Shown: positions 6,896 through 43,151, counted from the stretch's first letter. The stretch is DNA of 64,000 nt from Candidatus Jorgensenbacteria bacterium (GCA_037444725.1 JBBILW010000001.1:5056-69055); one strand, 5' to 3'. Program-made: numbers and translations. Notes: a model not told the origin generated them from the sequence alone.

Positions 6896-6946
6896 AATAT
6901 TTAGCTTGAATTTTTGCGGGTACTCGCGTTTAATTAACTATAACCA

Positions 6947-9094
6947 ATGGCACGACGCAAATCAAAAAATAAAAAACAAACGGGCGAAAAAGTAAAGGCA
7001 TCGAAATCCAACGATTTTCCGCGCGAGTCGAATATGGATCTCCACCCGGATGTGAAAAAATATGTCATCGCGACTATTTTGGCGGGTGTCACTATCATTC
7101 TCTTGCTTTCGGGTTTTCATCAGGCGGGTCCGTGGGGCGAAATTTTTTACAACGCCTTCTTCAAATTATTCGGCTGGGGTTACTATTTACTTCCCGTCGT
7201 CACGACGATTGTCGCGCTTTCTTTTTTTGCGCCGGAGCCGACAAAATTTTTAGGCATCACATTAATCGGCGCACTTTTCTTCGTCCTCTCTGGTCTAGGT
7301 TTTATGGATGTGACATTCCCGGGCAGCGGGGGATGGGTTGGAGAATTTATCGGCGCACTGAAATATCCGTTCGGGAACACCGCCGCGATTATCATCACGC
7401 TCACCGGACTTGTCGCATCATTTTTGGTTACGTTAAATCGTCCGCTCAATCTTTCGTTCCGCCGCGAGCGCGATGAAGATGAGGAAGAGGAAGATGAGGA
7501 AGAGAACGAGGTAAAGGAAGTGGAAATAAAACTTCCGCTCGAAGCGCGCGAAGAGCCCGTGAAGGATGAAATAAAAAAACCGGCTGCACGTGCGACAGAG
7601 CAGAAACAAAAGAAGGAGGTTGAAGAGGCGCTCGACGAATCGCAATTCGAGGTGCCGAAGGCGACAACGCAAAAGAGCATCCAGAACTACACGCCGCCGC
7701 CGCTCTCACTTCTTTCGTCTGCAGTCGAGAAGCCGACCATCGGCGACCTTCGTGCAAACGCGAACGTTATCAAGCGCACACTTGAGAGCTTCGGCATTCC
7801 CGTCGAGATGGGAGAGATTAACGTCGGCCCCACAGTGACGCGCTACACATTGAAGCCCGCCGAAGGCGTGAAAATTTCACGCATCACGACGCTGAACCAG
7901 GATCTTGCCTTGGCACTTGCTGCGCATCCTATCCGCATAGAGGCGCCCATCCCTGGCAAATCGCTTGTGGGCATCGAGGTGCCGAACAAGTCGGCGGCCG
8001 TCGTACGCCTTGGCAGTCTTCTTCTCTATCCTGAATTCCAGAAATCGGAGCCGCTCGCATTCCCGATTGGCCGCAACGTAAACGGCGAGCCCGTCTTCAC
8101 GAATATCGCAAAGATGCCGCACATGCTTGTCGCGGGCGCAACGGGTTCGGGCAAATCCATCACGCTCCACTCGATTCTCATTTCGCTCCTTTATAAGAAC
8201 TCGCCGGACATGTTGAAGATGATTCTCATCGACCCGAAGCGCGTGGAACTTTCGGTCTACAACAATCTTCCGCATCTCATTGCGCCTGTCGTTACTGAAA
8301 ACAAAAAAGCTATCGGTGCGCTCCGCTGGGTTATCCAGGAAATGGACCGCCGCTACCAGGTGCTTCTCGAAGCGGGATCGCGCGATATCAAGAGCTACAA
8401 CAAGAGCGCAAAAGAAACTCTTCCTTATATATTGGTGGTCATCGATGAGCTCGCCGACCTTATGACGACCTACGGCAGGGAAGTGGAAGGATCTATCATT
8501 CGTCTTGCGCAGATGGCGCGCGCGACCGGCATCCACATAATCGTGTCGACGCAGCGTCCTTCAGTCGAGGTCATCACGGGCCTCATTAAGGCGAACATTA
8601 CGACGCGCATCGCGCTCCAGGTAGCAAGCCAGATCGATTCGCGCACCATCCTTGATATGGCGGGTGCGGAAAAATTGCTTGGCCACGGCGACCTTCTCTT
8701 TGTCTCGTCCGACTTCTCGAAGCCGCGGCGCATCCAAGGAGCGTTTTTGACCGAGGAGGAAATGAAATCGGTCATCAATTTCATCAAAGAGAACAATGAA
8801 ATTTCCGTGACCGGCATCGCAATCGACGAGGAACCCGAAGCTACTCATATCTTCGAGAGCATGACGGGAGGCGATGAAGAAGACGATATGTTTGAGGAGG
8901 CCGTGGAGGCCGTGCGTGCCGCTGGAAAAGCGTCGGCATCGCTCCTTCAGCGGAGGCTCAAGGTTGGCTATGCCCGTGCCGCGCGCCTCCTTGATATCAT
9001 GGAGCAAAAGGGTATGATAGGCCCAGGCGACGGCTCGAAGCCGCGTGAGGTGCTCTTCCTCGACAATGCGGGGAACGAACCCTCAAATGAATAA
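6947..9094 (+). CDS. ftsK: DNA translocase FtsK/SpoIIIE
   Basis: N-terminal TM helices, an acidic linker, Walker A (GATGSGKS) and Walker B (VVIDELADL), and a gamma winged-helix domain at the C-terminus. Confidence 0.9.
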   Translation: MARRKSKNKKQTGEKVKASKSNDFPRESNMDLHPDVKKYVIATILAGVTIILLLSGFHQAGPWGEIFYNAFFKLFGWGYYLLPVVTTIVALSFFAPEPTKFLGITLIGALFFVLSGLGFMDVTFPGSGGWVGEFIGALKYPFGNTAAIIITLTGLVASFLVTLNRPLNLSFRRERDEDEEEEDEEENEVKEVEIKLPLEAREEPVKDEIKKPAARATEQKQKKEVEEALDESQFEVPKATTQKSIQNYTPPPLSLLSSAVEKPTIGDLRANANVIKRTLESFGIPVEMGEINVGPTVTRYTLKPAEGVKISRITTLNQDLALALAAHPIRIEAPIPGKSLVGIEVPNKSAAVVRLGSLLLYPEFQKSEPLAFPIGRNVNGEPVFTNIAKMPHMLVAGATGSGKSITLHSILISLLYKNSPDMLKMILIDPKRVELSVYNNLPHLIAPVVTENKKAIGALRWVIQEMDRRYQVLLEAGSRDIKSYNKSAKETLPYILVVIDELADLMTTYGREVEGSIIRLAQMARATGIHIIVSTQRPSVEVITGLIKANITTRIALQVASQIDSRTILDMAGAEKLLGHGDLLFVSSDFSKPRRIQGAFLTEEEMKSVINFIKENNEISVTGIAIDEEPEATHIFESMTGGDEEDDMFEEAVEAVRAAGKASASLLQRRLKVGYARAARLLDIMEQKGMIGPGDGSKPREVLFLDNAGNEPSNE

Positions 9095-9097
9095 TCT

Positions 9098-9775
9098 ATG
9101 GACGAATTAGAAGAGATAAAACCGATTGCGGAGGTCATTGGGGATGCAATGAAGATGAAGGGCATTTCCGCAGAAAAGCTTTCGCAGCTCACCGGCGTAT
9201 CCGACCGTTTCATCGCACTTTTGCTCGATGACAAACATGAGAAGCTTCCGTCTGCGCCCTATGTCCGCGGCTATCTCTCCCGCATCGGCAACACGCTGAA
9301 CTTGAACGGCGAGCAGCTCTGGACCGATTACACGAAGCAGCACGTCGTGGCGCGTTCGGGGAAAAACGACACGCTTGTCACCAATAAATTCGAAATGAAG
9401 TATCCCGGCGCCCCCGTCCTCGCGGTTGGCGCGGTCGTCATCGCGGGCATCATCATTTTCGCGCTCCGCGCGCCCGCCTTTATCGGCACGCCAACACTCT
9501 CACTCGAAAACTTTTCTGAAACGGCGAGCACCTCGACGCTCGACATCAGAGGAAAAATTGATCCAAAAAATCAGCTCACGGTAAATGACGAAGTGGTGTA
9601 TCCGGACGAGCAGGGGACATTTGAAAAAAAAGTAACGCTTACCGTCGGCTTCAACACCTTCCGCTTCAAGGTAAAGGGAGTTCTCGGCAAGGAATTTGAA
9701 ACCACGAAGCAAGTCTATCTTGCAACCAGCACGAAGCACGTCGAAACAATAACCAATACTACTACCACGGAATAA
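9098..9775 (+). CDS. RodZ-like HTH membrane protein
   Basis: N-terminal HTH with the YVRGYLSRI motif, a single TM helix and a C-terminal beta domain. Confidence 0.5.
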
Positions 9776-9776
9776 C

Positions 9777-10829
9777 ATGGCACCCGCAAAGAAAGCGAAA
9801 GTGAATGATGAGTCTTCGAAAGATTTAGAGTCCTTGATGGAATCACTGCAGTCCCGCTTCGGCGAGGGCTCGGTGATGAAGCTTGGCGAACAATCGGCAA
9901 TGAAAGTAGAGGCGATACCCACGGGTTCGTTCTCGCTCGATTTGGCGCTCGGCGTCGGCGGCTTCCCGAAAGGGCGCGTCATCGAAATCTTCGGCCCCGA
10001 GAGTTCCGGCAAGACCACACTTGCGCTTCATGCGGTCGCGGAAGTCCAGAAGAAGGGTGGTAAGGCGGCCTTCATTGATGCGGAACACGCGCTCGACCCC
10101 GAGTATGCCGCAAAGATTGGCGTGAAGACGAAAGAGCTTATCATCTCTCAGCCCGACAACGGCGAAGAGGCATTGAATATCTTAGAGAGCATTGTGCGTT
10201 CGAACGTAATTGATATCGTGGTCGTGGACTCCGTCGCAGCGCTCACGCCACGCGCGGAAATCGAAGGCGAGATGGGCGCCCAGCACATGGGCCTCCAGGC
10301 ACGCCTCATGTCCCAGGCGCTGCGCAAGCTGACCGCCATCGCCGCGAAATCGAACACAATTGTTATCTTCATCAACCAGACGCGTATGAAAATCGGTCTT
10401 GTCTTCGGCAATCCCGAAACAACTCCGGGCGGTATGGCGCTCAAGTTCTACGCATCGGTCCGTATCGATATCCGCCGCATCGCGCAAATTAAAAAAGGGG
10501 AGGATGTTGTCGGCAACCGCACCAAAGCGAAAGTAGTGAAGAACAAGGTAGCGCCGCCGTTTCGCGTTGCGGAATTCGACATTCTCTACGGCGAGGGCAT
10601 CTCGTATGAATCGGACGTATTGAATACCGCGGTGAAATATGAAGTGGTAAAGAAAAACGGCGCGAGCTATTCCATGGACGGCGAGAAGCTCGGCAACGGA
10701 TTCGACAACGTGCGATTGAGACTTAAGGAAGATAAGAAACTTCTCGAGACGCTCAAGAAGAAAACAACGGAAGCTTCGCTCAAAAAAGGAATTATTGGCG
10801 TTGCGGGTCCGGACGACGAGAAAGAATAA
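9777..10829 (+). CDS. recA: recombinase RecA
   Basis: [34 protein letters not shown] matches RecA over its full length. Confidence 0.95.
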
Positions 10830-10840
10830 GAAAGGGGTGA

Positions 10841-10981
10841 CCGATATCGCGCGTACCCCTCGGAACCAGAATACAAGCGCTCCAGCGGCGCTTGTTTCTT
10901 TTCTCTCGCCGTTTTCCTTCTCTTCGAGAAGACCAATCTAAAACGGCTCCGAGACATTCCTCGGAGCACGTGCGATATCGG
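10841..10981. repeat. About 140 bp palindromic element with 25 bp imperfect terminal inverted repeats (MITE-like), lying between the convergent recA and folD genes
   Basis: ccgatatcgcgcgtacccctcggaa at 10841 pairs with ttcctcggagcacgtgcgatatcgg at 10957 (20/25 complementary). Nested internal hairpins include gccgtttt/aaaacggc. Confidence 0.35.
10874..10904 (+). terminator. rho-independent terminator of recA
   Basis: caagcgc-tccagcg-gcgcttg hairpin followed by a T-rich tract. Confidence 0.6.
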
Positions 10982-11012
10982 ATAGATGAGGTAAGTCGGG
11001 CAGAGCAGAAGT

Positions 11013-11849
11013 TTAGGAATTCAATGCGTAGAAGTTTTTGAATAGCTGCGCGACAAGTATGGGACCCGTGCCACCCGGCGTCGGCGTAAAGCTAAGCGAG
11101 TCGGGCGCGCCTTTTGCTTCAAAATCGCCCGCAATGCGGCCGCGCTCCGCGCTATAACCAAAATCTACGACGAGCGCATCGTGCTTTACCATCGACGCCT
11201 TCACAAGTCCCGCGCTTCCCACGCCGATGATAACGATATCCATGTGCTTTAACTCCGATAAATCGCTCCCTTTATCGAGATAATGGATTTCGGAGCTCTT
11301 GCCGAGAAGCCACGTCCCGATGGGTTTTCCCACAAGTGAGCCCAAACCCACGACGCCGATTTTCTTGTGCTCGATAAACCAACCCGCAATTGAGGCGTCG
11401 TCGCCGCGTGCGTGAATGAGCTTTCTGTCGAGTACCGCAAGAAGCGTGCCGACCGAGGGAGGCAGAATTTTTCCTCGTCCCGTATAGAATGCGCCGAGTG
11501 CGCGCTCGCTCAATACGTCAACATCAACCTCGCGAGGAATCGAGTTTAGAAGATACTGCGCATTGAGATGCGCGGGAAGCGGCAGTTGGATAATAATGCC
11601 GCCGCATGCCTTTTTCTCCGCAATCGAGGCAATCTCTTTCCTCAAGTCGTCTTCACGCACGCGCTCGGAGTATGCGTGCAGTTCAAACGGTATACCGAGG
11701 CGCTTTGCGATTTTTTCTTTCTGCTTTATGAAGCTGAGAGACGCGGGCTCCTTGCCCACGAGAATCGCGTGGAGCGTCTTCTTCATCTTTTTCCCCGATT
11801 CGAGTTCCGCCAATATTTCTTCCGCAATCTGTTTGCCGTCGATTATCAT
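11013..11849 (-). CDS. folD: bifunctional methylene-THF dehydrogenase/methenyl-THF cyclohydrolase
   Basis: MIIDGKQIAEEIL start and PGGTGP motif, with FolD-like similarity over the full length. The track ORF is trimmed to the conserved Met. Confidence 0.85.
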   Translation of the reverse strand: MIIDGKQIAEEILAELESGKKMKKTLHAILVGKEPASLSFIKQKEKIAKRLGIPFELHAYSERVREDDLRKEIASIAEKKACGGIIIQLPLPAHLNAQYLLNSIPREVDVDVLSERALGAFYTGRGKILPPSVGTLLAVLDRKLIHARGDDASIAGWFIEHKKIGVVGLGSLVGKPIGTWLLGKSSEIHYLDKGSDLSELKHMDIVIIGVGSAGLVKASMVKHDALVVDFGYSAERGRIAGDFEAKGAPDSLSFTPTPGGTGPILVAQLFKNFYALNS

Positions 11850-14388: not shown

Positions 14389-15414
14389 TTAGAACGCGAA
14401 TGCGCCCCTGAAGACGTTCTTCTCGAGAAGGCGCGCCTCCGTTTCCGTGAAATTGAACACCGCATCGCATCGCTCGATGACCTCCGGCATCGCCGGCAGG
14501 AAGAAGTCATCATCCGGGTTCAACGTGTAGCAGAGCCCGGCATCGAGAAGCTCAGGAATCCTCAACTCCTCGAGCGTCCCGATCGCACCCGTCGTAAGAT
14601 TCGAGAGGGGACAGCCTGCGACGCGGATGTGATTGTCCACCATGTAGCTCACCGTGTCGGGGTAGTCCACGAGCGGAATCGCGTGGCCCACGCCGTCGCA
14701 CTTCAGCACGTGGATAGCGGTGTGGATGTTGCGCATGAGGCGCGCACGATAGGTCTCGCGCGGCTCTTTCGCAACCCACTCGCCCGCGTGACAGTCCCGC
14801 CGCACCTTGCTGCCGAATGTGAGCTTGTACGCCTCGTAATGCTTTTCCGGCGGATGCGCCGCCTCATCGCACACGAGATTCAGCGCCGCTTCTCCGTCGA
14901 ACTCGAGCGCGATGCGCGCGATATCTTTTCCCGTCTCCACGTCCGCCTCGCGGCCGATGCAGATGTGCGGGAACACGCGGATATCGAGATTGAACTCGGT
15001 CGACTGCGCTGCTTCCACGAAGGCATGCGCGGCCTCGCGCATAGTGAGACCCTGCTTCGTGTGATACTGCGGCGCAAGATACGCCTCGACATACCGGTAT
15101 CCTTCAGCGCTGCGCGTGCGCGCATATTCGCGCACCGCATGGCGAATCGCCTCCTTCTTCTGAAGTGCGTTCGTGATGAGCGAAAACTTCTTCACGAGAT
15201 CAACGTGCACATTGCCGAAGAACGTTGCGAGCCTCTCCGGACTGCCTGCATTCTCCGCAACCTCGTACGGCAACGGCAACCCCGAGAGCTCGTAGAGCGT
15301 CGGGAGCGCTTTTGCGACTGCCATGCTTCCATCCACGTGGTCATGGTGCAATCCGCGAATAAACGGTTTCATGCGCGCCTTCCTTTCCCTGTTGGTTGGT
15401 AAGCTTCTCCTCAA
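14389..15414 (-). CDS. add: adenosine/adenine deaminase-family amidohydrolase
   Basis: HHDHVDGS metal-binding start and NPDDD motifs. Confidence 0.75.
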   Translation of the reverse strand: MRRSLPTNRERKARMKPFIRGLHHDHVDGSMAVAKALPTLYELSGLPLPYEVAENAGSPERLATFFGNVHVDLVKKFSLITNALQKKEAIRHAVREYARTRSAEGYRYVEAYLAPQYHTKQGLTMREAAHAFVEAAQSTEFNLDIRVFPHICIGREADVETGKDIARIALEFDGEAALNLVCDEAAHPPEKHYEAYKLTFGSKVRRDCHAGEWVAKEPRETYRARLMRNIHTAIHVLKCDGVGHAIPLVDYPDTVSYMVDNHIRVAGCPLSNLTTGAIGTLEELRIPELLDAGLCYTLNPDDDFFLPAMPEVIERCDAVFNFTETEARLLEKNVFRGAFAF

Positions 15415-15475
15415 GTTCTACCACCTCCTCACGTGACACGCAAACAAAAAAGCGCTCTTGGCGCCTTTTTCTTTG

Positions 15476-15547
15476 TCGGTCCGGCAGGACTCGAACCTGC
15501 AACCGGGCGTGTATAAGACGCCTGCTCTGCCATTGAGCTACGGACCG
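15476..15547 (-). tRNA. tRNA-Ile (anticodon TAT)
   Basis: Manual cloverleaf fold: acceptor stem CGGTCCG/CGGACCG, anticodon stem GGCGT/ACGCC, anticodon loop CTTATAC, T-loop TTCGAGT. Confidence 0.75.
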
Positions 15548-19784: not shown

Positions 19785-22259
19785 ATGGCTACAAAAAAAG
19801 AAGAACCACAAGTTAATCACGGTAGAATCGAACCTCGCGAAATAACCGACGAGCTCAAAGAGTCGTATCTCGACTATGCGATGTCCGTTATCGTTTCGCG
19901 CGCGCTTCCCGATGTGCGCGACGGATTGAAGCCCGTGCAGCGCCGCATTCTCTGGGCGATGTGGGACAGCGGACTCACGCATCAGACGAAATTCAAAAAA
20001 TCCGCGAACATCGTCGGAGACGTACTCGGACGCTACCATCCGCACGGCGATTCGTCCGTCTATGAATCAATGGTGCGTATGGCGCAGGACTTTTCACTCC
20101 GCTATCCGCTCGTTGATGGCCAGGGAAACTGGGGCTCCGTTGATGGCGATTCGGCAGCTGCGTATCGTTACACCGAAGCCAGGCTTACTAAAGTCGCCTC
20201 GGAACTTTTGACCGACATTGAGAAAGAAACAGTTGATTGGAATCCGAACTACGACAACTCCCGTGTTGAGCCTGCCTATCTTCCCGCAAAACTTCCGAAC
20301 CTTCTTTTGAACGGCACCGTCGGCATCGCCGTCGGTATGGCAACTTCCATTCCTCCGCACAACTTGCTTGAGGTAGTGGACGCGGCAATTCATCTTTCAA
20401 AAAACCCGGACGCTTCGACGCGCGAACTACTTCAATTCGTTCCCGGTCCTGACTTCCCGACAGGCGGTATTATTTATGACAAGAAGGCGATAGAGGAGGC
20501 GTACTCTACCGGCCGCGGCTCCATCACTATGCGCGCCGTCGCTGAAATCGAGGAGCGCAAAGCGGGCAGCTTCCAAATCATCATCACGGAAATTCCGTAT
20601 CAGGTGAACAAGTCCGACCTCATCACAAAGATGGCGGAATTGGCGCAGGAGAAAAAAATCGAAGGTATCCGCGATCTCCGCGACGAATCCGACCGCGACG
20701 GACTCCGCATTGTCGTCGAGTTGAAAAACGACGCTGCGCCGCAGAAGGTGCTGAACCAACTTTTCGAATACACCGAGCTCCAGAAGAATTTCTACTTCAA
20801 CATGTTGGCGCTCGTGAACGGCATCCAGCCGCAAGTGCTCTCCCTTAAAGAAGTGCTCGGCGAGTATCTCGCGCACCGCAAAATTATTGTGCGCCGCCGC
20901 ACCGAGTTCGATCTTAAGAAGGCAGAGGAGCGCGCGCATATTTTGACGGGCTTGGTAACCGCGCTCGACGTCATCGACAAGATTATCGCGACCATCAAGA
21001 AATCGAAGGATAAGGAGGAGGCTCGTACGAACCTCATGAAGCAGTTCAAACTTTCCGAAATCCAAGCGAACGCGATTTTGGAAATGAAGCTGCAGGCGCT
21101 CGCCGCACTCGAACGCATCAAGCTCGAGGACGAGCTCGCCGAAAAGAAGAAATTCATTGCGGAGTGCCAAGCAATTTTGAAATCGCCGAAGAAGATGCTC
21201 GAAATTATCCAGAAAGAGCTCGGCGAACTCCGCGAGGCATATCCCCAGCCCCGCAAGACGCGCATTATCGCGTCCGGCCTCAAAGAATTCCGCGAGGAAG
21301 ACCTTGTGCCCCAGGAAGAAATTATTATTACGATGAGCCAGGACGGTTACATCAAACGCATGCCGCCCGGTACCTTCAAGACGCAGAAGCGCGGAGGCAA
21401 GGGACTCATTGGCTCCGAACTCAAGGAGGAAGACCTCATCCGCCAGATTATCACCGCGAATACGCACGACAACGTACTCTTCTTCACGGACCGCGGACGC
21501 GTCTTCCAGACAAAAGCATACGAAATTCCCGTCGCCGCGCGCACCGCGAAAGGAAAATCAGTCCACAACTTCCTTACCATTCCGCCCGATGAGACCATCA
21601 TCTCCATTGTGAGCTATGCGGATGCCGCAGGAAAAGAAAAAGGAAGCGCCACTCAGTTCCTCGTCATGGCGACACGAGAAGGCGTTATTAAAAAGACGCC
21701 GGTATCAGACTTCGTCGCCGTACGCAGAAGCGGTATTATCGCGCTCAAATTGAAGGGCGAGGACTCATTGCAGTGGGCGTCATTCTCTTCCGGTGATGAC
21801 GAAATCATTCTTGTAACCGCAAACGGACAATCCATCCGCTTCAAAGAAAAGGATGTCCGCCCGATGGGCCGCACCGCTGCCGGAACTCGCGCGGTACGCC
21901 TTAAGAAGGGCGACGTGGTCGCGGGATTCGATATTATTGCGAAGGGAACGAAGGAGGACGTGCAATTCCTCGTGGTGATGGCACACGGATTTGCAAAGCA
22001 AACGCCGCTCAAGGACTACAAGACGCAAAAGCGCGGAGGAGGAGGCATTAAGACCGCGAAAATCACCGACAAAACAGGCAAAGTCATCGCGGCACGCATC
22101 ATCAGCGAGGACACTGAGGAAGCAATCGCATTCTCGTCGAAGGGCCAGGCGCTCCGCACGAAACTCTCCGACATCCGTGTTGCGGGACGCGCGACGCAGG
22201 GCGTGAAAATCATGAACCTCGACGCGGGCGACTCCATTGTCGGCATCGTCTGCCTCTAA
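19785..22259 (+). CDS. gyrA: DNA gyrase subunit A
   Basis: The QRDR-region motif and the active-site [11 protein letters not shown] are present, together with a C-terminal beta-pinwheel domain. Confidence 0.95.
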
Positions 22260-22361: not shown

Positions 22362-23648
22362 ATGTCAAAACCTCAGATTCTTTTTGTGGCAATCGCGGGA
22401 ACTCTCATTTTTATACTCGTGCTCATTTTTGCCGGCATTCTTCCGGGTCTTCAGCCCGCACGCACAAAAGTAACGCTTAAGGTATGGGAAGTGGGGTCAT
22501 ACAGCATAGAAAATTCGCTAAAACTTCTTAAGTCCTCATATCCTGGCGTCACTTTCGATATTAAGAAATTCGACACCATGGATATGTATGAAAATGCGCT
22601 CCTTGAAGGATTCGCCGTCGGCAGCGCGCCCGATATTTTCATGGTCTCCGGAGAAAACTTCCCCCGTTTTTCAAATAAAATCAGCGTAGCGCCGCAAACC
22701 GGCATCACGCTCGTCCAACTTCGCAACCTCTTCCCGCAGATTGCCGAACAGGCATTCACGCTTAAGGGTCAGATTTATGCGCTCCCGCTCTCCATCGACG
22801 ACCTTGCGCTCATCTATAATAGGAGTCTTTTGGGCTCTGCCGGCATCGCCACTCCGCCGAAGACGTGGGAAGAACTCCAACAGGTTGCGCCGTCGATAAC
22901 AAAGAAAGACGCGGCAGGGAACATCACGATTGCAGCGGTAACACTCGGCGGTTCGGCGCGAAGCGTTACCAATGCGGCGGACATACTCGGCGCCATGATG
23001 ATGCAACGGGGTGCCGCGATGGTAAATGAAACAAATACGGCCGCAACATTTGCGGATATACAAGGAAATACGGCCCTCTCCTACTATACGCAATTTGCAG
23101 ATGCTTCAAGCTCCCTCTACACGTGGAACGACTCCATGCCGTTCTCGATAGACGCATTCGCCCAAGAAAAGGCGGCGATGACTTTCGGCTACCTTGAAGA
23201 TGTGAAGCGGATAAAGGCGCGCAGTCCATACCTCAATTTTGACATTGCGCCGCTACCGCAGCCGAAATCGCTTGTCGATGCGGGAAAATCGCTTACGTAC
23301 CCGTCGTTGTACGGTTACACCGTCTCCCGCCAGTCACCGAACTACGCAACCGCATGGAATATTCTTATCGCGCTCGCCACCAATCCCGGTAATGCGCAGG
23401 CATATCTTGATGAAACGGGCACGTCTCCCGCGCTCCTCTCGCTCATTAGCGCATCACAAAGCAATCCGCGCATTGGCGTGTTTGCGCGGCAGGCGCTTGT
23501 CGCAAAACTCTGGCAGAAACCCAATAACTCAATGGCAAACGCTTCATTTTCCTCAATGATTGAAAACGTAATCACCAAAAAGCTGCGCGTCAATGATGCG
23601 CTGTACCAGGCACAAAGCGAGATTAACAAGTTATTTATCCGCCAGTAA
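22362..23648 (+). CDS. ABC-transporter-type extracellular solute-binding protein (family 1)
   Basis: Signal anchor followed by an SBP_bac_1-like periplasmic binding fold. A TATAAT box sits about 15 nt upstream. Confidence 0.7.
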   Translation: MSKPQILFVAIAGTLIFILVLIFAGILPGLQPARTKVTLKVWEVGSYSIENSLKLLKSSYPGVTFDIKKFDTMDMYENALLEGFAVGSAPDIFMVSGENFPRFSNKISVAPQTGITLVQLRNLFPQIAEQAFTLKGQIYALPLSIDDLALIYNRSLLGSAGIATPPKTWEELQQVAPSITKKDAAGNITIAAVTLGGSARSVTNAADILGAMMMQRGAAMVNETNTAATFADIQGNTALSYYTQFADASSSLYTWNDSMPFSIDAFAQEKAAMTFGYLEDVKRIKARSPYLNFDIAPLPQPKSLVDAGKSLTYPSLYGYTVSRQSPNYATAWNILIALATNPGNAQAYLDETGTSPALLSLISASQSNPRIGVFARQALVAKLWQKPNNSMANASFSSMIENVITKKLRVNDALYQAQSEINKLFIRQ

Positions 23649-23665
23649 GGTATAATAGAATACAC

Positions 23666-24088
23666 ATGATGTTTCGCTTACTCGCTGGTATTACTCTTGC
23701 CCTCGTCCTCTTCGTCGCCGTTGCTCCGCATGCGCTTGCGGCAAGTATTTGGACGGGAACCTCGTGCGTGGGCACTAGCGGAGGCCCCGACAAGCCGTGC
23801 TCCTTCTGTGACGCGCTTATTGTAGGAAGAAATATTATTACGTTTCTTACCGAGATTGCCGTGTCTATCACCACGCTCATGATAGTAGTCGGCGCAATAC
23901 AATTGGTGATTGCGGGCGGCGACCCCGGAAAAATCTCTGACGCAAAAAGAACGATGGGGCGCGGTCTCACCGGACTTCTCGTCGTAATGTCCGCATGGAC
24001 ACTTATGAACGCGCTTCTCATATTCATCGCACGCGGCAGCGCCTCCGATCCTTCAGGTTGGAAGTGGAATGAGATACAATGTCAGTAA
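23666..24088 (+). CDS. VirB2/TrbC-like T4SS pilin paralogue 1
   Basis: Signal peptide followed by two hydrophobic helices separated by a short loop (GGDPGKISDAKRTM). Confidence 0.45.
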   Translation: MMFRLLAGITLALVLFVAVAPHALAASIWTGTSCVGTSGGPDKPCSFCDALIVGRNIITFLTEIAVSITTLMIVVGAIQLVIAGGDPGKISDAKRTMGRGLTGLLVVMSAWTLMNALLIFIARGSASDPSGWKWNEIQCQ

Positions 24089-24423
24089 CCATTATGAAAA
24101 CGTTCTCTAAGGCACTTTTTCTCACGCTCGTCCTTACCGCCGCGGCAGCACACGCGCAAACATCCGTAGCGCTCCCCAATCCGCTCGGGGGCGTAAGCAC
24201 AATCGGCGACCTCCTCAATAAAATTATCGACGCGCTTATTCTTTTCGCATCGCCCGTAGTAGTAGTCATCGTCATGTATGCGGGATATTTGTTTCTTTCC
24301 GCGCGCGACGAACCGGAAAAGATTACCCAGGCCAGAAACACCATTCTCTATGCGATGCTCGGGTATGGTATAATACTAATCGCAAAGGGAATCGGGCTTA
24401 TTATTCAAAGCTTCTTTTCCTAG
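24079..24423 (+). CDS. VirB2/TrbC-like T4SS pilin paralogue 2
   Basis: Same architecture as paralogue 1. The start overlaps the preceding gene by 10 nt. Confidence 0.45.
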   Translation: MSVTIMKTFSKALFLTLVLTAAAAHAQTSVALPNPLGGVSTIGDLLNKIIDALILFASPVVVVIVMYAGYLFLSARDEPEKITQARNTILYAMLGYGIILIAKGIGLIIQSFFS

Positions 24424-24470
24424 AAAAGGTCGAGTTGTACATTGCAGACCATTCAAACTTATTACTGAAC

Positions 24471-24818
24471 ATGAAAACACTTGTAAAATACGCATCATTT
24501 GCAGCAGCAATCGCTCCCGTTCTCGCATTCGCGCAGGCAGCACCTGGCGACGTGACCGGAGGAACACAGGGACGCATCACATCACTTACCGGAGTCTGGA
24601 CTATTGTGCAGACGGCAGTTAATTGGCTCGTCGCCATTTTCTTCCTCTATGCAACGATTCAGTTCCTTTTGGCAGGCTGGGAGTATCTTAGCTCCAAGGG
24701 TGATGAATCGAAGGTGACGGAAGTGAGGAATCGCCTTCTCTATGGAGTCATCGGCGTCGCGGTAGGACTTCTTGCATTCTCAGTCCCCGCTATCGTGAGG
24801 ACATTCGTGGGTGCATAA
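24471..24818 (+). CDS. VirB2/TrbC-like T4SS pilin paralogue 3
   Basis: Same architecture again. Start trimmed to MKTLVKYASF. Confidence 0.45.
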   Translation: MKTLVKYASFAAAIAPVLAFAQAAPGDVTGGTQGRITSLTGVWTIVQTAVNWLVAIFFLYATIQFLLAGWEYLSSKGDESKVTEVRNRLLYGVIGVAVGLLAFSVPAIVRTFVGA

Positions 24819-24956
24819 TTACAACCGATACTACGTTACAAAGGCTCCTCTCTGCTTCACAGCAAGGGGAGTTTTTGATTCCCTTCTTCGCTAAAGCTAC
24901 GAAGGGCACGGTATTAGAAAAGTAGGAAAATTGGTGTATATTTATGGAAAGTATTT

Positions 24957-25039
24957 GCTCCCGTGGCGGAACTGGCATACGCGCAGCGCTTAGGACGCTG
25001 TCCCCAAAAGGGTTAGAGGTTCAAATCCTCTCGGGAGCA
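24957..25039 (+). tRNA. tRNA-Leu (anticodon TAG), type II with a long variable arm
   Basis: Manual cloverleaf fold: acceptor stem GCTCCCG/CGGGAGC, anticodon loop CTTAGGA, T-arm AGAGG-TTCAAAT-CCTCT. Length is 83 nt. Confidence 0.85.
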
Positions 25040-25044
25040 CAAAA

Positions 25045-25072
25045 TGACTCCACCGTTTAGGTGGAGTTTGTG
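25045..25072 (+). terminator. hairpin terminator after tRNA-Leu
   Basis: ctccacc-gttt-aggtggag followed by TTTG. Confidence 0.5.
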
Positions 25073-25203
25073 CTCCGAGGATTTGAACGGGAAAGGGGTC
25101 GGGGAAACGGAAGTTTCCCCGTGGCGGAGCACACGAACCGCTGGGTTCGTGAGAGGCGAGCGATATGCGCGAGCCGACGTTCAATTACCTCTCGGGAGCA
25201 CAA
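25067..25203. repeat. scrambled tRNA-Leu fragments (pseudo-tRNA and att-like remnants)
   Basis: An inverted copy of the tRNA 3' end lies at 25067-25088, a direct copy of the 5' cccgtggcgga segment at 25118-25128, and a direct near-copy of the last 25 nt of the tRNA at 25179-25203. Confidence 0.5.
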
Positions 25204-25275
25204 ACGCACTAACAAATAACTAATCACTTACAACAAATAACGCAGAGCAGTCGCTCCCTCCATCGTTATAAGTGA

Positions 25276-26193
25276 TTAGTTATCAGTTTCTTTCCGTCTG
25301 CGAGCATGAAACGCCTCATGCACTTCGCGGAGCTCTTTATTCGTAAGGTGAGTATATACCTGTGTCGTCGCAATGTTTGCGTGGCCCAAGAGCTCCTGCA
25401 CCGAGCGGAGGTCTGCGCCGTTCACAAGCAAGTCGGTCGCGAACGAGTGCCGTAACTCATGCGGGTGCACATGCTTTGCGATGCCTGCCGCACGGGCGTA
25501 GTGATCAACAAGACGCTGAATGGTCCGCGGGATAATACGCTCCATCGGCTTGCCGCTTTTCGAAAGACTTATGAAAAGCGCCTCATCCGCATCAGTCCGT
25601 TTTTTTAAATAATCCTTGATTGCCGTGCGAGCACCGGCCGAGAGAAAGACAACGCGGATTTTCTCTCCCTTTCCACGCACGGAAAGCTCTCCGCGCTCAA
25701 GGTCCAAATATCTCGAGAGCGCGCAAATTTCGGAAACGCGGAGACCGGTCGAAAAGAGAACCTCGAGAATCGCGCGATCGCGGAGCGCGCGGAGCGAATC
25801 ACCCTTCGGTGCGGCAAGGAGCCGCACCAGTTCTTTATACTCAAGCACCTCGATGTCGCGTCGCGCGATTTTGGGAAGCTCGATGGTTTCCGGCGCAAGT
25901 GACTTCACGCCGCGCTTCACGAAATACTTTAAAAGATTACGAAGCGCGATGACGTAATAGCTCTGTGTAATCTTTTTCATGCCGCGCCGCGAGAGCGACA
26001 CGCGAAAACTTCTGACAACCGCGTCGGTAATATCGGTAGGGGATTTCACTCCCGTTTCTTTCACGAACAAGGCAAGATAGCGTTCGTAATTCTCCCGCGT
26101 TTTTAACGAGCGATTTTTTTCAATCTCAAGATAATCGAGGTACTCCTTACAAAGGTCTTTTACATTCGCCATTATCTCCATTGTATCACGCAT
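25276..26193 (-). CDS. tyrosine site-specific recombinase (XerC/XerD/integrase family)
   Basis: Catalytic R...HxxR...Y constellation (LRHSFATDLL, HANIATTQVYTHL). The true start is uncertain and may lie anywhere from 26172 to 26322. Confidence 0.85.
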   Translation of the reverse strand: MRDTMEIMANVKDLCKEYLDYLEIEKNRSLKTRENYERYLALFVKETGVKSPTDITDAVVRSFRVSLSRRGMKKITQSYYVIALRNLLKYFVKRGVKSLAPETIELPKIARRDIEVLEYKELVRLLAAPKGDSLRALRDRAILEVLFSTGLRVSEICALSRYLDLERGELSVRGKGEKIRVVFLSAGARTAIKDYLKKRTDADEALFISLSKSGKPMERIIPRTIQRLVDHYARAAGIAKHVHPHELRHSFATDLLVNGADLRSVQELLGHANIATTQVYTHLTNKELREVHEAFHARRRKETDN

Positions 26194-36735: not shown

Positions 36736-38457
36736 ATGAACTTCCGCATTCATTCGCTTATCGCATCGTCGCTCTTTGTCACCGTGCTCACCACGAGTAT
36801 TTTTGCATACTATCCAGTGAAAGAAGTGCACGCTCAAGCCGGTACGTCAGAAGTCCTGGGAGCCTGCGGCGTGAATGCCGCACTCGATGCATTGACCGCA
36901 GTCGCGGGAGAAGCATTAAGTTTTTTAAGCACATCGGTTCCCACCACAAACCGTCCGCAACAACTTACGACAATTAAGTATGGTATTCAGCAATGTCTTA
37001 TGGCGATATTAAACCTCACCATCAAAGTCATGCTCGCGAAATTAAAAAAGCGGCTTTTGGACAGACTTACCGATGACACCATTTCCTGGATTAATGGCGA
37101 TGGGGGAAAGCCCAAATTCGTTACCAACTTCGGCGACGTGCTCAAGGAAAGCGCCGATGCTGCGGTTGGCGACACGCTCCGTGCATCGGGTATGGGTAAG
37201 CTCTGCTCTGACAAATTATCACTCCAAGTACAGGTATCATTACGAAAACAAAAGAAATTTTCCGAAGGTATAACCTGCACTCTTACGGGAGCGGCAAAAA
37301 ACGTTTCAGCATTTGCCGATAACTTTAACAATGGCAGCTGGATAGGGTATGGACAGCTTCTCGAGCCCTCAAATAACCGCTGGGGACTGCAGCTCCTTGC
37401 CATGGATGCGCTTGATACCAAAAAATCGCAGCTCAATGAGGCTACGAAGTTAAAAACCCAGGCAAGCACGGGCTTTACACCGACCGAGTTCTGTAAGGCG
37501 TGGACGCTTACCGGCGTACACACAACGGATGGTATCGGCAAGGTTACAGAAATCGCGCGCGTATCAGGAGACGTGTTTAATGGCGGACTCCGCGCACCGG
37601 AAAATCCTCCAAGTCCCACCGAGCGACCCGGAAACGCCGATTATTATCCGCCTGATTTCCCACAAAACTATACTGACCTTGCTTATGTTTGCGTTTCGGG
37701 AGACCGCGTTGTTTCAACGCCTGCGACGACAATCTCCGGCGCGACCGACAAGGCGGTTACGAGCGATTGGAATACCATCGCCAACATGGACGATCTCACT
37801 CCCTACATATCTGCAATATTCGATGCCGCGGTTAACCGAGTGAAGAAAGCTGGCGTGAAGGGTTTGTTGTCCGCCAAAAACGACCTCTTCAGCGACAGCA
37901 GCAAGACCGGCTATTCAGCCGGCGCGGGAGGGAGCGCAACTGATCAGACCGTTATCGAGTTAAAAGCTTCGTACGCTGCCGCGATGGCTGAAGCATCGAG
38001 TACTAGCGCACTTCTTAAGGCTGCGAACGACCAAATCACAACCGCGCTTAATCAATTGAACGCGCTTGGCGCCTGCCAGGCCTCCGTACTCGTTGCGCTA
38101 AATCCTATGGGAACGGTTTTTGATTGTCCTGCCACCGGTACAAAACTCACCACAGTTTCCAACTCATACGCATCGCTCAACACATACGCTTCAAATCTCG
38201 CCGATGCAAAAAAATCACTTTCACAAACCACCTCCCAGGTGAACGCCGCAACGAGTACCATGAGCATTACCACCCTTGCGACTCTTTCCTCGCTCGTGGC
38301 TGACGCAAGAGGAAAAATAGCTTCTATAGCAATCGGCGTTCAAAAGATTATTGACGCAACCACCGCAGACGCAACGCTTATAGCAAACGAACTCACCACC
38401 TGCTCGAATGCCGCAAAATTCCCCGGCACCGCATACAGCTGTCCTGTCTGGCCCTAA
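36736..38457 (+). CDS. large secreted hypothetical protein (573 aa)
   Basis: Signal anchor with a Thr/Ser/Ala-rich composition and no recognisable domain. Confidence 0.45.
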   Translation: MNFRIHSLIASSLFVTVLTTSIFAYYPVKEVHAQAGTSEVLGACGVNAALDALTAVAGEALSFLSTSVPTTNRPQQLTTIKYGIQQCLMAILNLTIKVMLAKLKKRLLDRLTDDTISWINGDGGKPKFVTNFGDVLKESADAAVGDTLRASGMGKLCSDKLSLQVQVSLRKQKKFSEGITCTLTGAAKNVSAFADNFNNGSWIGYGQLLEPSNNRWGLQLLAMDALDTKKSQLNEATKLKTQASTGFTPTEFCKAWTLTGVHTTDGIGKVTEIARVSGDVFNGGLRAPENPPSPTERPGNADYYPPDFPQNYTDLAYVCVSGDRVVSTPATTISGATDKAVTSDWNTIANMDDLTPYISAIFDAAVNRVKKAGVKGLLSAKNDLFSDSSKTGYSAGAGGSATDQTVIELKASYAAAMAEASSTSALLKAANDQITTALNQLNALGACQASVLVALNPMGTVFDCPATGTKLTTVSNSYASLNTYASNLADAKKSLSQTTSQVNAATSTMSITTLATLSSLVADARGKIASIAIGVQKIIDATTADATLIANELTTCSNAAKFPGTAYSCPVWP

Positions 38458-38460
38458 TTC

Positions 38461-39969
38461 ATGAAGTATCGCCCCAAATATTTATTCCTTGGACTAGTCA
38501 TCGCGGGAAGCGTTGCGCTGCTTACGCCTCATTTGGCGCACGCGGGCATTATGGATGACACGGCAATAAAAGTTGGCGTGGCGATGTTTAGTGTGGTCGC
38601 CTACATCATCAACACGATAGTCGGTTTCTTGTTCGTTGCTGCCGCATGGCTCGTCGGCATCGCGATGAGCATCAACGATACCGTCGCAAGCTCAACCAAT
38701 TCCATTGTAACCATCGGATGGGGGATATCACGTGATATTGCAAACCTCGGTTTCGTGCTTGCGATGGTCGTTATCGCATTTGCCACCATCATCAATTATG
38801 AACCATACGGCGCACGCAAACTTCTTGTGAAACTCATCACCGCGGCTATTCTCGTAAATTTCAGCTTGACGATAGGCGGCGTCCTTATTGATTTTTCAAA
38901 CGTCCTCACCCACTTCTTTCTCAGCCGAATCAACGTGACCCCTATCGAACTCGCGAGTAAGCTTGCGCAAGCGCTCGGGCCTCAGAAATTCATACTGGGC
39001 GACACGACCGATCCGCTTCCGCCCGATCCGAAGAACCAGCCGAATGTTCAGGAGGCGATTGGTTGGGGAGTACTGCTCAACATAAGCGGCCTTATATTTT
39101 CGATGGCATTCATTCTCATCTCCACCATCGTGCTGCTCACCTTTGCCGTCATGCTTCTTGTGCGTTTCGTAACACTTACGATTCTTCTTGCGTCAGCGCC
39201 GCTCTCCTGGCTCTTCAGCGTCATTCCGCAACTGAATAAGATGAACGATCTCTGGTGGAATAAATTTACGCAATGGACGTTCTTTGCGCCCGCGATGACA
39301 TTCTTTGTTTATCTCGCGCTTGCGGGTCTCGATGCTCTGTCGATACAATCCACTCCGGATACATTCTTCAGCGACCCTGGACTCGCCACCATTATGGCGA
39401 CGGGCATGAGGGGTGTATTGCTCTGCGGCACACTTGTTGGTGGATTAATGGCCGCAAATAAAATGGGTATTACAGGCGCGGCCGCGGGAATGGGCGCGGC
39501 AAAAGGCTTGTGGAGCGGCACTAAGGGATATGTGGGCGAGCGTGCAACCATGCTTCGCCAGCGCCTTGCGGCGGCGGGCATGCAAATCGATAAAAGCGGC
39601 GTGGCAACGACGGGCGCGGGGCGTGTCGCCGCAGCACTTGGCAGGGGTCTCTATCAGGTACCTCTTGTGGGAACAGGACTCGCGCGAAGGGCCGAGCGCG
39701 TGCGGGACGCGATTGGAAGAGACGCAGCAGCGCACATCGAGAATCGAGGGGTTGTGCGCACCGGTATAATGGGCTCACTCTTCCGCGGCGCTGCTGAGGG
39801 TGCGGGCGTTGTCGGCAAGAAAAAGGCAAGAAAACCTGAGGACATGACAAAAGAAGAACTGCTTGAAGAGCGGGAAACGCTTAAAACTGAAAAAGAAGCG
39901 GCCGAAAAAAGAGGGAAGGCGGCTGAATCCGCAAATATTCCGACGGGTGGTCAAACGCCGTCGGTTTAA
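38461..39969 (+). CDS. polytopic membrane protein, VirB6/TrbL-like
   Basis: At least six predicted TM helices and a Gly/Ala-rich cytoplasmic tail. The topology matches T4SS inner-membrane VirB6 proteins. Confidence 0.4.
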   Translation: MKYRPKYLFLGLVIAGSVALLTPHLAHAGIMDDTAIKVGVAMFSVVAYIINTIVGFLFVAAAWLVGIAMSINDTVASSTNSIVTIGWGISRDIANLGFVLAMVVIAFATIINYEPYGARKLLVKLITAAILVNFSLTIGGVLIDFSNVLTHFFLSRINVTPIELASKLAQALGPQKFILGDTTDPLPPDPKNQPNVQEAIGWGVLLNISGLIFSMAFILISTIVLLTFAVMLLVRFVTLTILLASAPLSWLFSVIPQLNKMNDLWWNKFTQWTFFAPAMTFFVYLALAGLDALSIQSTPDTFFSDPGLATIMATGMRGVLLCGTLVGGLMAANKMGITGAAAGMGAAKGLWSGTKGYVGERATMLRQRLAAAGMQIDKSGVATTGAGRVAAALGRGLYQVPLVGTGLARRAERVRDAIGRDAAAHIENRGVVRTGIMGSLFRGAAEGAGVVGKKKARKPEDMTKEELLEERETLKTEKEAAEKRGKAAESANIPTGGQTPSV

Positions 39970-40026
39970 AAAACCGAACTCTACGGCTAAGAATAGTGGG
40001 TCTGCCTAATACATATCAAAAACCGC

Positions 40027-41397
40027 ATGGAAAGTTTTAAGAATCCGTTCGACGCGCGCATTAAAGCAATAGACGACGTTCTTGAGAAACGATTCGGAGA
40101 AGCAAAAACCGCAAGCGATTGGCAAAAGCGCGTAGAGGCGCTTGAAGAAGAGCAGAAAAAAACCAAAGACGCTGGTTATGATTTTTCGTACTACAAATCA
40201 GCAATCGCGCAAGCAAGAAAAAAGAAAGTTGAGACTATGGACGACGGCACACTTGAGGAGCAGCTCAAGAAAATTAAGGAGTTCGAATCGCTTCGTGAAG
40301 AAGAGGATAAAATCCTCCGCGAAAAAATAGAAGCGGAAACCGACGAGAAGAAAAAGGAGGGATTAAAAAAGGACAGAAATAAGGCGCTCGCGTATTATGA
40401 AAAGAAAATAAACGAGATTGAAGAAAAGATAAAACCGAAAAATGAGGAGGAGTTCATCAAAAAAATCTCGGACATAGAAGAGAGGAGGAGTGAAAAACTT
40501 CAACGATTGGGAGTAAACAAAGAAGGGAAGACCATCGCAGATGTTACTTATTTCGATTCACAGCTCGCCACAGCGCAACGCGAGCTCGATAAACTAATCA
40601 CCGCAAAAACCGAGAGGCCCGTTCAGTACGTTTTGGAAGCGGGTCTTAAGAAAATCCGCACGCAAAGGGATATAGAAATCGCCTCTCACGGCACGAGCAG
40701 TTTAAGCGACATCCTTAATGACGCTACAAAAAAATTTACCGTATTTGTTTCCGATTGGCGGAAATTTGATTCGCAAAAACTGAAACAAGCACGGCAATGG
40801 GAGGCGCGGCGAGCATCGCTCGACAAACTTGAACGAGATTTCGGGCCCGCCATAGAAGAAGTCAAAAAAATCCCCGCGTTCGCGTCTGAAGCGCAACAGA
40901 TTGAGGATGAAGTGCGCGCGATTATTAAAGAACAAAAAGAACTTGTGGATGATGAAACAAATAAGACGGATGGCGCGCAAAAATCCAAACCTGAGGCGTC
41001 ACAATCGATAGACGATCTTCTGAAGGTGATGGCGATTGCGCAAGAAGGCGAGCGAGTTAAAAAAGAACGTGAGACGTTGCAGCGGGAAAAGCCGATTCAA
41101 TTCCTTGTAGAAGATTTGATTAACCAGCTTCAGAAACAGCGTGATACTGAAACTCTTATAGATGCGCTGTATCAATTCGAAAGTTCTTGGCAAAAGATTG
41201 ACGAACGCAAGCCGGAAACAGAGGCGGAGTGGGCGCTTCGCCGCGATGCATTGCGGGCACTTAAAATGGAACTCCTCAATGCAAAGAAGAAATTGTCTGA
41301 TATGAAAATCGTTATCGATTATAGCGCAATCGACAACGAGATTGCGGATGCGGACGATTTTTTAGCTGCCGCGGGTAAAAAGGATCAGCAGTCCTAG
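40027..41397 (+). CDS. Lys/Glu-rich coiled-coil hypothetical protein
   Basis: Pervasive EK-rich heptad-like composition and no TM helix. Confidence 0.45.
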   Translation: MESFKNPFDARIKAIDDVLEKRFGEAKTASDWQKRVEALEEEQKKTKDAGYDFSYYKSAIAQARKKKVETMDDGTLEEQLKKIKEFESLREEEDKILREKIEAETDEKKKEGLKKDRNKALAYYEKKINEIEEKIKPKNEEEFIKKISDIEERRSEKLQRLGVNKEGKTIADVTYFDSQLATAQRELDKLITAKTERPVQYVLEAGLKKIRTQRDIEIASHGTSSLSDILNDATKKFTVFVSDWRKFDSQKLKQARQWEARRASLDKLERDFGPAIEEVKKIPAFASEAQQIEDEVRAIIKEQKELVDDETNKTDGAQKSKPEASQSIDDLLKVMAIAQEGERVKKERETLQREKPIQFLVEDLINQLQKQRDTETLIDALYQFESSWQKIDERKPETEAEWALRRDALRALKMELLNAKKKLSDMKIVIDYSAIDNEIADADDFLAAAGKKDQQS

Positions 41398-41439
41398 CCA
41401 ATAGGAGGTACAATTGAAAACGACATCGGTATATAATGT

Positions 41440-42618
41440 TTGTATACGAGAGATATGGATTATTCACTCATCACTGAACAAGCGATTAACAACCGATACA
41501 ATACCGTCCCGGAAGAACTTCGCGATGCGGTGGATTCCGAACAAACGCAAAAGCTGATATCCAACATCAGCAAAACGCAGTATTTGAATGAGGAAAAATC
41601 GCTTATCTTGGAGCAACTCGTTGCACTTGTGCTCCTCGGCTTTATGTCGACAAACGAACTGGTGCACGAGCTTCGCGAACAGCTTTTCTTAAACCATGAG
41701 CACGCCCGCGTACTGGCAAATGAGCTCAACAACAGAATTTTCGAGTCACTTAAAGAAGAGCTCGCTGCCGCATACAATCCTCCCGCGGCTACCATTGAAC
41801 AGGAAGCGCCTCAGCCTCCCTCGGCGGTAAGAGCACCAGCCGAAGAACCTCTTCCTATTACGTCGTTTAAGATCGCTCCGGAAGCGGCGCCTGCGCCGGC
41901 ATCCACGCCCGCGCCCATTTCTCCCGTTTCCATCAACGCAAGCGAAGGCGGGCCCGCAGTTTTGCAGAAACAGACGCCCTTTTTCGAACGGGCGGAATTA
42001 AAACCGACCGGTAAGAAACCGTCGCTTTCATTCAACACGTTCGCATCATCATCCGAGACCACCGAACCGCCTCGCGTTCAGGCAAAAATCGAAACTCCTC
42101 TCGGTGTGCAATGGGCAGCGAAAAAAGAGGAGCCTAAAAAAATGGGGAAGGTGGTGCACTATAGCGAATTCGGCTCATCAGGAGGCGGAGGCCGCCCCGC
42201 ACCCGTTTCGGAGTTTATTAATCTTGAGGCGCTCAAAAAGGTTTCGCTCGACACAAAGCCCGCCCCCGCGGCACCGCAGGTAGCCCCAGCCGCACCTCAA
42301 TCCGCAAGCCCCGCTCCGCAGCAACCTCCGGCAGCTCCTTCTGCGCCGATTCTTAACCCCGACGTGCCGACGCTCATCACGCCGGTCGCAACGATAAAGC
42401 CAGCGCCGATAGAAGAGAAAAAGAGTCCTCTCATGTGGGGTATAAATCCCATTTCTGTAAGCGTTCCAACTGCCACAACAGCTGATTCGGGACCGAAGCG
42501 TATGGATGCAATAGTGCCTAATGCCGGCTCTCCAGCAGCTCAAAAACCAGCTCCCGTACCGATTTCGAGCGATACGAAACAACCCGCACTTGAAGGAAAT
42601 GTTATTCACCTTCGCTAA
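41440..42618 (+). CDS. hypothetical protein with a Pro/Ala-rich central region
   Basis: The track start is a TTG. An ATG at 41455 is an alternative start. Confidence 0.4.
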   Translation: MYTRDMDYSLITEQAINNRYNTVPEELRDAVDSEQTQKLISNISKTQYLNEEKSLILEQLVALVLLGFMSTNELVHELREQLFLNHEHARVLANELNNRIFESLKEELAAAYNPPAATIEQEAPQPPSAVRAPAEEPLPITSFKIAPEAAPAPASTPAPISPVSINASEGGPAVLQKQTPFFERAELKPTGKKPSLSFNTFASSSETTEPPRVQAKIETPLGVQWAAKKEEPKKMGKVVHYSEFGSSGGGGRPAPVSEFINLEALKKVSLDTKPAPAAPQVAPAAPQSASPAPQQPPAAPSAPILNPDVPTLITPVATIKPAPIEEKKSPLMWGINPISVSVPTATTADSGPKRMDAIVPNAGSPAAQKPAPVPISSDTKQPALEGNVIHLR

Positions 42619-43115: not shown

Positions 43116-43151
43116 CGCATAAACCGTTGAAATACGGTACAATATACGTAT

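Follow-up and report, generated by a model that had tools for sequence, protein, structure and literature searches.

The pilin locus

The DNA analysed here (the window, 64,000 nt of one strand of Candidatus Jorgensenbacteria bacterium, GCA_037444725.1 JBBILW010000001.1:5056-69055) contains three small open reading frames (ORFs) in tandem, which had been proposed from the sequence alone to encode VirB2/TrbC-like pilin paralogues of a type IV secretion system (T4SS). All three are on the + strand, between gyrA and a solute-binding protein (SBP) gene on one side and a tRNA-Leu(UAG) gene on the other, and are separated from each other by gaps of 5 and 47 nt. With starts set from those kept in orthologues of five related lineages, pilin 1 occupies positions 23666-24088 (140 aa), pilin 2 24094-24423 (109 aa from the conserved ATG, or 114 aa from an alternative upstream ATG at 24079) and pilin 3 24471-24818 (115 aa from the conserved ATG, the mechanical ORF beginning at a TTG at 24435). 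The start of pilin 3, ATGAAAACA, is kept in the five lineages. The predicted tandem at 23666-24818 is thereby borne out. Directly upstream, gyrA (19785-22259) is followed by a gene for a membrane-anchored extracellular SBP (22362-23648, + strand; PF13416/PF01547, E ~2e-21), whose end is 17 nt from pilin 1.

A TATAAT box resembling a -10 element (23649-23654, + strand) stands 11 nt before the ATG of pilin 1 and directly after the SBP stop codon, where the original prediction had placed one at about 10 nt. The same spot carries TAAGGTATAAT or TATACT in the five lineages. The position of this box would imply a very short leader, and a scan for consensus -35/-10 promoters found no -35 match and called no promoter at it. 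On the other end of the array, a hairpin with a U tract resembling an intrinsic terminator (24839-24881, + strand) has a predicted fold of -21.9 kcal/mol (z -4.2); a hairpin followed by TTTTTG is found 3' of pilin 3 in all five lineages, with stems that differ in sequence, and a simple terminator scan did not call the one in the window. Taken at the level of sequence signals, the three pilin genes look like one compact transcription unit running from a conserved -10-like box to a conserved terminator, and read-through into them from the SBP gene is possible.

Family assignment and architecture of the three proteins

Each of the three products exceeds the Pfam gathering score of PF18895, T4SS_pilin (34.0, 35.1 and 34.0 bits for pilins 1, 2 and 3, respectively, vs 26.6), and PF18895 is also the precomputed assignment of proteins identical or orthologous to them. 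The gathering score of PF04956, TrbC/VirB2, is passed by pilin 2 alone (29.1 vs 27.9 bits), and many members of the wider family found by profile search carry both domains. Hydropathy analysis gives the same succession of signal peptide, helix, short polar loop and helix in all three proteins, and the AlphaFold2 model of pilin 2 (pLDDT 81) predicts helices at residues 3-22, 37-69 and 74-108 in a helical hairpin with a 4-residue loop. The paralogues are strongly diverged, with pairwise identities of 17-25% in the window. The identity, architecture and divergence that had been ascribed to the three ORFs are therefore upheld.

A hidden Markov model (HMM) built from the three ORFs matches a single further ORF in the entire window (47709-49196), which indicates that the pilin signal is not a matter of generic hydrophobicity or an artefact of composition.

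In pilin 1 the signal peptide is followed by an N-terminal segment with three cysteines, two hydrophobic helices and a C-terminal tail that ends in a fourth cysteine. All pilin 1 orthologues keep these four cysteines, of which the first three precede helix 1; cysteines are absent from pilins 2 and 3, and the consensus of the wider family has two before helix 1. This pattern suggests disulfide-stapled and unstapled subclasses of pilins.

Conservation of the array in related lineages

Close relatives were recovered by exact-protein look-ups of pilin 2 homologues (64-100% identity), which yielded five lineages. In all of them the gene order is gyrA-SBP-pil1-pil2-pil3 followed by tRNA-Leu(UAG), with xer-rpsO-NYN-pnp coming next where the contig extends, and the number, order and lengths of the pilin genes are constant. 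At the level of individual loci, the gyrA-SBP-pilins order is found in L002, L003, L085, L087 and L088 as well as in the distant L007 (GyrA 63% identical), and tRNA-Leu(UAG) lies downstream of the array in L002-L004, L007, L085, L087 and L088. The pilin-cassette variation between related genomes that had been suggested as a check was not seen in the five lineages.

Every paralogue has its own orthologue, at 52-90% identity overall (52-82% for pilin 1 and 59-90% for pilin 3). For example, the proteins of L002 are 82%, 88% and 90% identical to pilins 1, 2 and 3 of the window (85% for the SBP and 98% for GyrA), and those of L087 are 52%, 71% and 77% identical (62% for the SBP and 90% for GyrA). 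The paralogues themselves are only 17-33% identical in every lineage, so the duplication long predates these lineages. Nei-Gojobori dN/dS values between the window and L002 are 0.114, 0.063 and 0.129 for pilins 1-3, similar to the 0.079 of the neighbouring SBP, and 0.017 for GyrA; each pilin copy is under purifying selection. The same gyrA-SBP-pilins-tRNA-Leu slot holds six pilin-like genes in L007, where the SBP gene and the array span 6221-11185, showing that the copy number of the array does change, only across large evolutionary distances.

The tRNA-Leu gene, the adjacent insert and the recombinase

The tRNA-Leu and tyrosine recombinase genes reported beside the array are indeed there. The tRNA-Leu(UAG) gene (24957-25040, + strand; detected by ARAGORN, Rfam tRNA 54.7 bits) is intact, and the notion of a damaged tRNA site holds only for what follows it, a window-specific insert of ~230 bp (25041-25275) between tRNA-Leu and xer that consists partly of tRNA-Leu fragments. 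Two stretches of tRNA-Leu recur exactly within the insert, 17 nt from the 3' end and 11 nt from the 5' end, and the T arm recurs there in inverted orientation. Either strand of the insert gives a strong predicted fold (z -6.4 and -7.3). The insert is absent from L002 and L003, has no copy elsewhere in the window or in the other loci, and matches no Rfam family at a relaxed threshold. It is probably what an integration or duplication event left behind at the 3' end of the tRNA gene, or else a degenerate tRNA copy. At the same spot 3' of tRNA-Leu, L087 (5439-6272) has an ORF of 243 aa, without an NCBIfam match, between two 41-nt palindromic repeats. This flank of tRNA-Leu thus seems to be a small variable spot or insertion hotspot; it lies toward the recombinase, separated by the tRNA from the pilin genes, which are untouched.

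The recombinase (25276-26166, - strand; 296 aa from the conserved start, the mechanical ORF extending to 26322) is of the Xer type. It aligns end to end with XerC (246 bits), XerD (243.5 bits) and XerA (225.1 bits, above the cutoff of 220), and shares 93% identity with its positional counterpart in L002.

These features bear on the functional part of the original prediction, by which the locus would serve pilin diversification or exchange, with variant cassettes shuffled, replaced or switched by the recombinase or through tRNA integration in an antigenic or host-range-like manner. Such a reading draws on the adjacency of a tyrosine recombinase and a tRNA gene, on the variability 3' of tRNA-Leu (the 230-bp insert in the window, the 243-aa ORF in L087 and nothing in L002) and on the six pilin-like genes that L007 has between the SBP and tRNA-Leu genes; it is also in line with the speculation in the literature that paralogue diversity aids host adaptation (PMC12102498). 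It is at odds with the identical gene number, order and lengths in the five lineages and with the fixed one-to-one orthology under purifying selection (dN/dS 0.06-0.13). Moreover, every copy is a complete gene with its own signal peptide, there being no silent cassettes, and no direct or inverted repeats were found flanking the pilin genes or common to them. The recombinase, an end-to-end match to XerC/XerD/XerA, is not of the invertase or shufflon type; L007 has the same array-tRNA layout with no Xer homologue in the locus; and the variable spot lies beyond the tRNA. The exchange reading is therefore largely refuted at the timescale sampled, and we regard it as very improbable. The Xer recombinase and tRNA-Leu are most likely ordinary chromosomal neighbours with no role in pilin variation.

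Distant homologues and their association with T4SS genes

A scan of species-representative genomes returned 79 loci, mostly from Saccharibacteria and ~30% identical (the close relatives described above were not among the returns). The window-derived HMM found 385 pilin-like ORFs in 85 sources. Arrays of 3, 4, 5, 6, 7 and 8 genes on the same strand occur 4, 25, 20, 11, 3 and 1 times, respectively, those of 4-6 genes being the commonest. Within 10 kb of the array, homologues of VirB4 are present in 41, of PrgI in 56 and of the TrsD-like protein in 52 of the 79 loci (the window counted), mostly on the strand opposite to the array in the distant loci. This clustering ties the family to T4SS independently of its Pfam name. 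No position-specific orthology could be assigned to the Saccharibacteria arrays, as single-linkage clustering of the 385 pilin-like ORFs gave one cluster. The SBP gene is absent within 10 kb in those Saccharibacteria loci whose array adjoins virB4.

The family is a very common one, its profile matching 95,194 cluster representatives at E <= 0.001 among 1.84 billion. A word-based homologue search with pilin 2 alone found 5 proteins, and an alignment query recovered more. The top matches of the family profile (P0142-P0291) are proteins of 200-1775 aa with 2-17 pilin-like repeats per chain. These are either genuine fusions of entire arrays or gene predictions joined across the stop codons of recoded lineages.

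Could the three ORFs instead have no relation to pilins and encode small membrane proteins of another kind (holins, bacteriocin-immunity proteins or phenol-soluble-modulin-like peptides, for example) that resemble them in hydrophobic composition only? Pilin 2 does have weak, sub-threshold matches to delta-lysin and DUF families, and a helical hairpin is a generic structure (the top Foldseek match is ATP synthase subunit c, E 0.45). Against this stand three independent passes of the curated PF18895 cutoff, the lack of any PHROG family match at E <= 0.01, the behaviour of the window-derived HMM, which skips other membrane proteins of the window such as YidC, and the clustering of the family with virB4, prgI and trsD across dozens of genomes. 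These four lines of evidence refute such an identity, and a chance likeness of unrelated membrane proteins appears extremely remote.

The T4SS cluster of the window

The window is part of a chromosome of the ultrasmall Patescibacteria (candidate phyla radiation, CPR), close to the replication origin, with yidC, jag, dnaA and dnaN at 49.2-53.8 kb. Beside yidC/dnaA/dnaN, at ~36.7-49.2 kb, lies a monoderm-type T4SS cluster that includes genes for a PrgI/VirB3-like protein (42618-43115, + strand; PF12666), a TrsD-like protein (43152-43802, + strand; NF041427 TrsD) and a VirB4 ATPase of the CD1110 family (43799-45550, + strand; PF19044/PF12846, NF045971 376.9 bits vs a cutoff of 325). The virB4 start at 43799 is 18,981 nt past the end of the array, in agreement with the ~19 kb first estimated.

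Six ORFs of the cluster (573, 456, 392, 116, 225 and 401 aa, at 36736-42618 and 45555-47800) have no Pfam family. Among the cluster ORFs at 36736-47800, the Saccharibacteria loci share only the one at 38461-39969, which has a weak match to a CD3337/EF1877 mobilome membrane protein, and the TrsD-like gene at 43152-43802. The genes scanned yielded neither a relaxase nor a coupling protein, and no homologue of VirB5, VirB7, VirB9 or VirB10, no cyclase and no TraF-type maturation gene was identified. Elsewhere in the window a tRNA-Ile gene with a UAU anticodon is located at 15475-15547 (- strand); L002 and L007 have one at 446-519 and 14589-14662, respectively.

A pilin-peptidase fusion within the T4SS cluster

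The single additional ORF matched by the window-derived HMM encodes a fourth pilin-domain protein (47802-49196, + strand), in which an N-terminal VirB2-like hairpin is joined to a C-terminal LAS-fold zinc peptidase domain. Its PF18895 score of 26.0 bits falls just below the cutoff of 26.6; together with the HMM match, it substantiates the relationship to the three pilins that had been suspected for its N-terminus. Homologues of the C-terminal domain keep an invariant H, D, H pattern (TSLTGGxH...HYxGxAxD...HIH), and the profile of this domain matches Hedgehog N-terminal domains (E 0.001-0.003) exactly at the zinc-binding H-x6-D motif. Comparison of the domain with known proteins gave scores of 8.1 for the Sonic hedgehog N-domain, 7.4 for the pneumococcal VldE peptidase domain, 6.8 for both the Streptomyces DD-carboxypeptidase and the phage T5 L-Ala-D-Glu peptidase, 6.6 for VanXYc and 6.0 for VanX. 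The C-terminal domain is thus of the LAS fold.

A shorter homologue of the fusion protein is encoded inside the L007 array, at its head. Among the first members of 200-330 aa in Saccharibacteria arrays, a regular expression for the LAS motif found none, a weak negative as the pattern also missed the L007 homologue. A possible function of the fusion protein is that of a cell-wall peptidase held at the T4SS by its pilin module, and hence of an analogue of VirB1, which is rarely found by HMM surveys in Patescibacteria genomes.

Comparison with known pilin systems

The closest counterparts are the pilin arrays described in other Patescibacteria. Quiñonero-Coronel et al. 2025 (PMC12102498) used PF18895 and PF04956 to survey 3,035 Patescibacteria genomes and described 441 arrays of 2-11 VirB2-like genes, in tandem or one gene apart, with a mean paralogue identity of 25% and a maximum of 54%. 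In that survey pilin genes were near virB4 in 1135 of 1948 assemblies, and hence away from it in ~42%, and the T4SS was frequently encoded close to dnaA. The same points on arrays are summarised in a 2025 review (PMC12857230). In S. epibionticum, predicted pilin subunits encoded inside the T4SS cluster are essential (Wang et al. 2023, PMC10633639). The window array resembles those of the survey, and the essential array in the SEML1_0006-0019 region of Southlakia epibionticum (PMC10633639), in being a tandem of PF18895 genes with or without PF04956; with the surveyed arrays it further shares a paralogue identity of ~20-25% and a genome that encodes a monoderm-type T4SS with VirB4, PrgI and TrsD close to dnaA. 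It differs in having three genes where 4-6 are usual in Saccharibacteria loci, in lying 12-19 kb from the T4SS cluster rather than adjacent and divergent to it, and in occupying a conserved gyrA-SBP-pilins-tRNA-Leu slot. The pilin-peptidase fusion, which heads the array in L007, is in the T4SS cluster here. Overall, the array has every feature of the published class except adjacency to virB4, which the published survey shows not to be universal.

The TrbC/VirB2 pilins of diderm bacteria (A. tumefaciens VirB2, RP4 TrbC and F TraA) are similar in their signal peptide, two hydrophobic helices, short polar loop and size of ~90-120 aa, and pilin 2 passes PF04956. On the other hand, pilins 1 and 3 fail PF04956, hhalign with A. 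tumefaciens VirB2 detects no resemblance, and the bacterium is a monoderm whose pilus is hypothetical.

Another small two-helix protein encoded together with a monoderm VirB4 is the Mbov_0395-family pilin-like protein of Mycoplasma integrative and conjugative elements (ICEs; NF045849). It is matched by pilin 2 (E 2e-7) and pilin 3 (E 0.007), and the VirB4 and TrsD-like proteins of the window also match the Mycoplasma ICE VirB4 model. With 30.4 and 16 bits, respectively, pilins 2 and 3 fall short of the curated cutoff (40) and are not members of this family, which is represented by a single gene on a mobile element rather than by a chromosomal array.

Several divergent pilin genes side by side are also seen in the tandem VirB2 genes of Bartonella/Anaplasma and in the antigenic variation system of Neisseria, pilE/pilS. 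Unlike these systems, the window array has no silent cassettes and no shared recombination tracts, and consists of orthologues that are fixed across lineages and under purifying selection. We also know of no eukaryotic immune system that would act as a selective agent on the window pilins.

Interpretation and proposed role

The explanation we favour, and hold to be likely, is that the three ORFs constitute an ancient array of VirB2-like pilins (PF18895), passed on stably and belonging to a chromosomal monoderm-type T4SS of a Patescibacteria bacterium. It is based on family membership, architecture, operon signals, synteny, purifying selection and the linkage to virB4 in relatives; processing, filament assembly and a division of labour among the paralogues are inferred.

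A number of results weigh against this interpretation. The PF04956 threshold is not reached by pilin 3 (13.1 bits) or by pilin 1, which has no match at all. The Foldseek search of the PDB with the pilin 2 model returned nothing at E <= 0.001 and only generic helical hairpins (best E 0.45), the family profile matched no pilin among PDB sequences, and hhalign of the family alignment with one VirB2 sequence of A. tumefaciens, 99% identical to annotated virB2 genes, gave a probability of 0.35%. No evident Shine-Dalgarno sequence precedes any of the three pilin starts. The array is not beside virB4 in the window, and its functional link to the T4SS is taken from homologous arrays that do adjoin virB4. 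Finally, no T4SS pilus has yet been seen in any Patescibacterium (PMC12857230).

The last point leads to another possibility, that the proteins are T4SS accessory subunits, either membrane-embedded or Sec-secreted as part of a channel or of the surface, that never form an extracellular filament, so that the name pilin would reflect ancestry only. Monoderm T4SSs are generally devoid of pili, none has been observed in Patescibacteria (PMC10633639, PMC12857230), and the published description of the TM7x array calls it simply Sec-secreted (PMC12102498). The use of the hairpin as the N-terminal anchor of a peptidase in the 47802-49196 protein implies that this module is able to tether a protein to a membrane or a complex, and the 2-17 fused pilin repeats of the top family matches fit a channel or scaffold better than a helical filament. 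The homology to TrbC/VirB2, the conserved helix-loop-helix hairpin with a G-D-P-x-K-type loop and the retention of whole multi-gene arrays in very small genomes argue the other way, and on balance we think it rather unlikely that no filament is made.

Under the favoured interpretation of a T4SS pilin array, and by analogy with VirB2/TraA pilins, each pilin precursor would be exported by Sec, and its signal peptide would be cut after an AxA motif. The mature protein of ~90-115 aa may then reside in the membrane as a two-helix hairpin, from which the VirB4/VirB3/VirB6-type machinery, encoded 12-25 kb away near dnaA, could extract it. The extracted pilins would presumably be built into a pilus-like or conduit structure at the contact between the bacterium and its host.

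As each paralogue is conserved in its own right and their divergence is old, the three most likely serve as non-redundant subunits (e.g. major, minor or tip-adaptor) rather than as interchangeable variants. A more specific scheme, in which the paralogues form one heteromeric T4SS filament or conduit that is functionally paired with the SBP to import nutrients from the host cell, would take the fixed position of the array right behind the SBP gene (the 17-nt gap, and an order kept to relatives with 63% GyrA identity) as a reflection of that pairing; we offer it as a speculation of low probability.

Implications for the T4SS of Patescibacteria

As one more example of a published and widespread feature of Patescibacteria, the array carries little weight as a discovery. 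What the window adds is that such an array can stand apart from virB4, in a conserved slot behind an SBP gene, and that the pilin hairpin is reused as the N-terminal module of a LAS-fold peptidase within the T4SS cluster, making the fusion protein a candidate for the VirB1 function mostly missed by HMM surveys. In this lineage the number, order and orthology of the array genes have remained stable while their sequences diverged to 52-77% identity, which argues for distinct roles of the paralogues and tempers the idea of antigenic or host-range variation raised in the literature. If true, nutrient import by a paired SBP and T4SS would offer a tangible starting point for working out what makes the T4SS of Patescibacteria essential.

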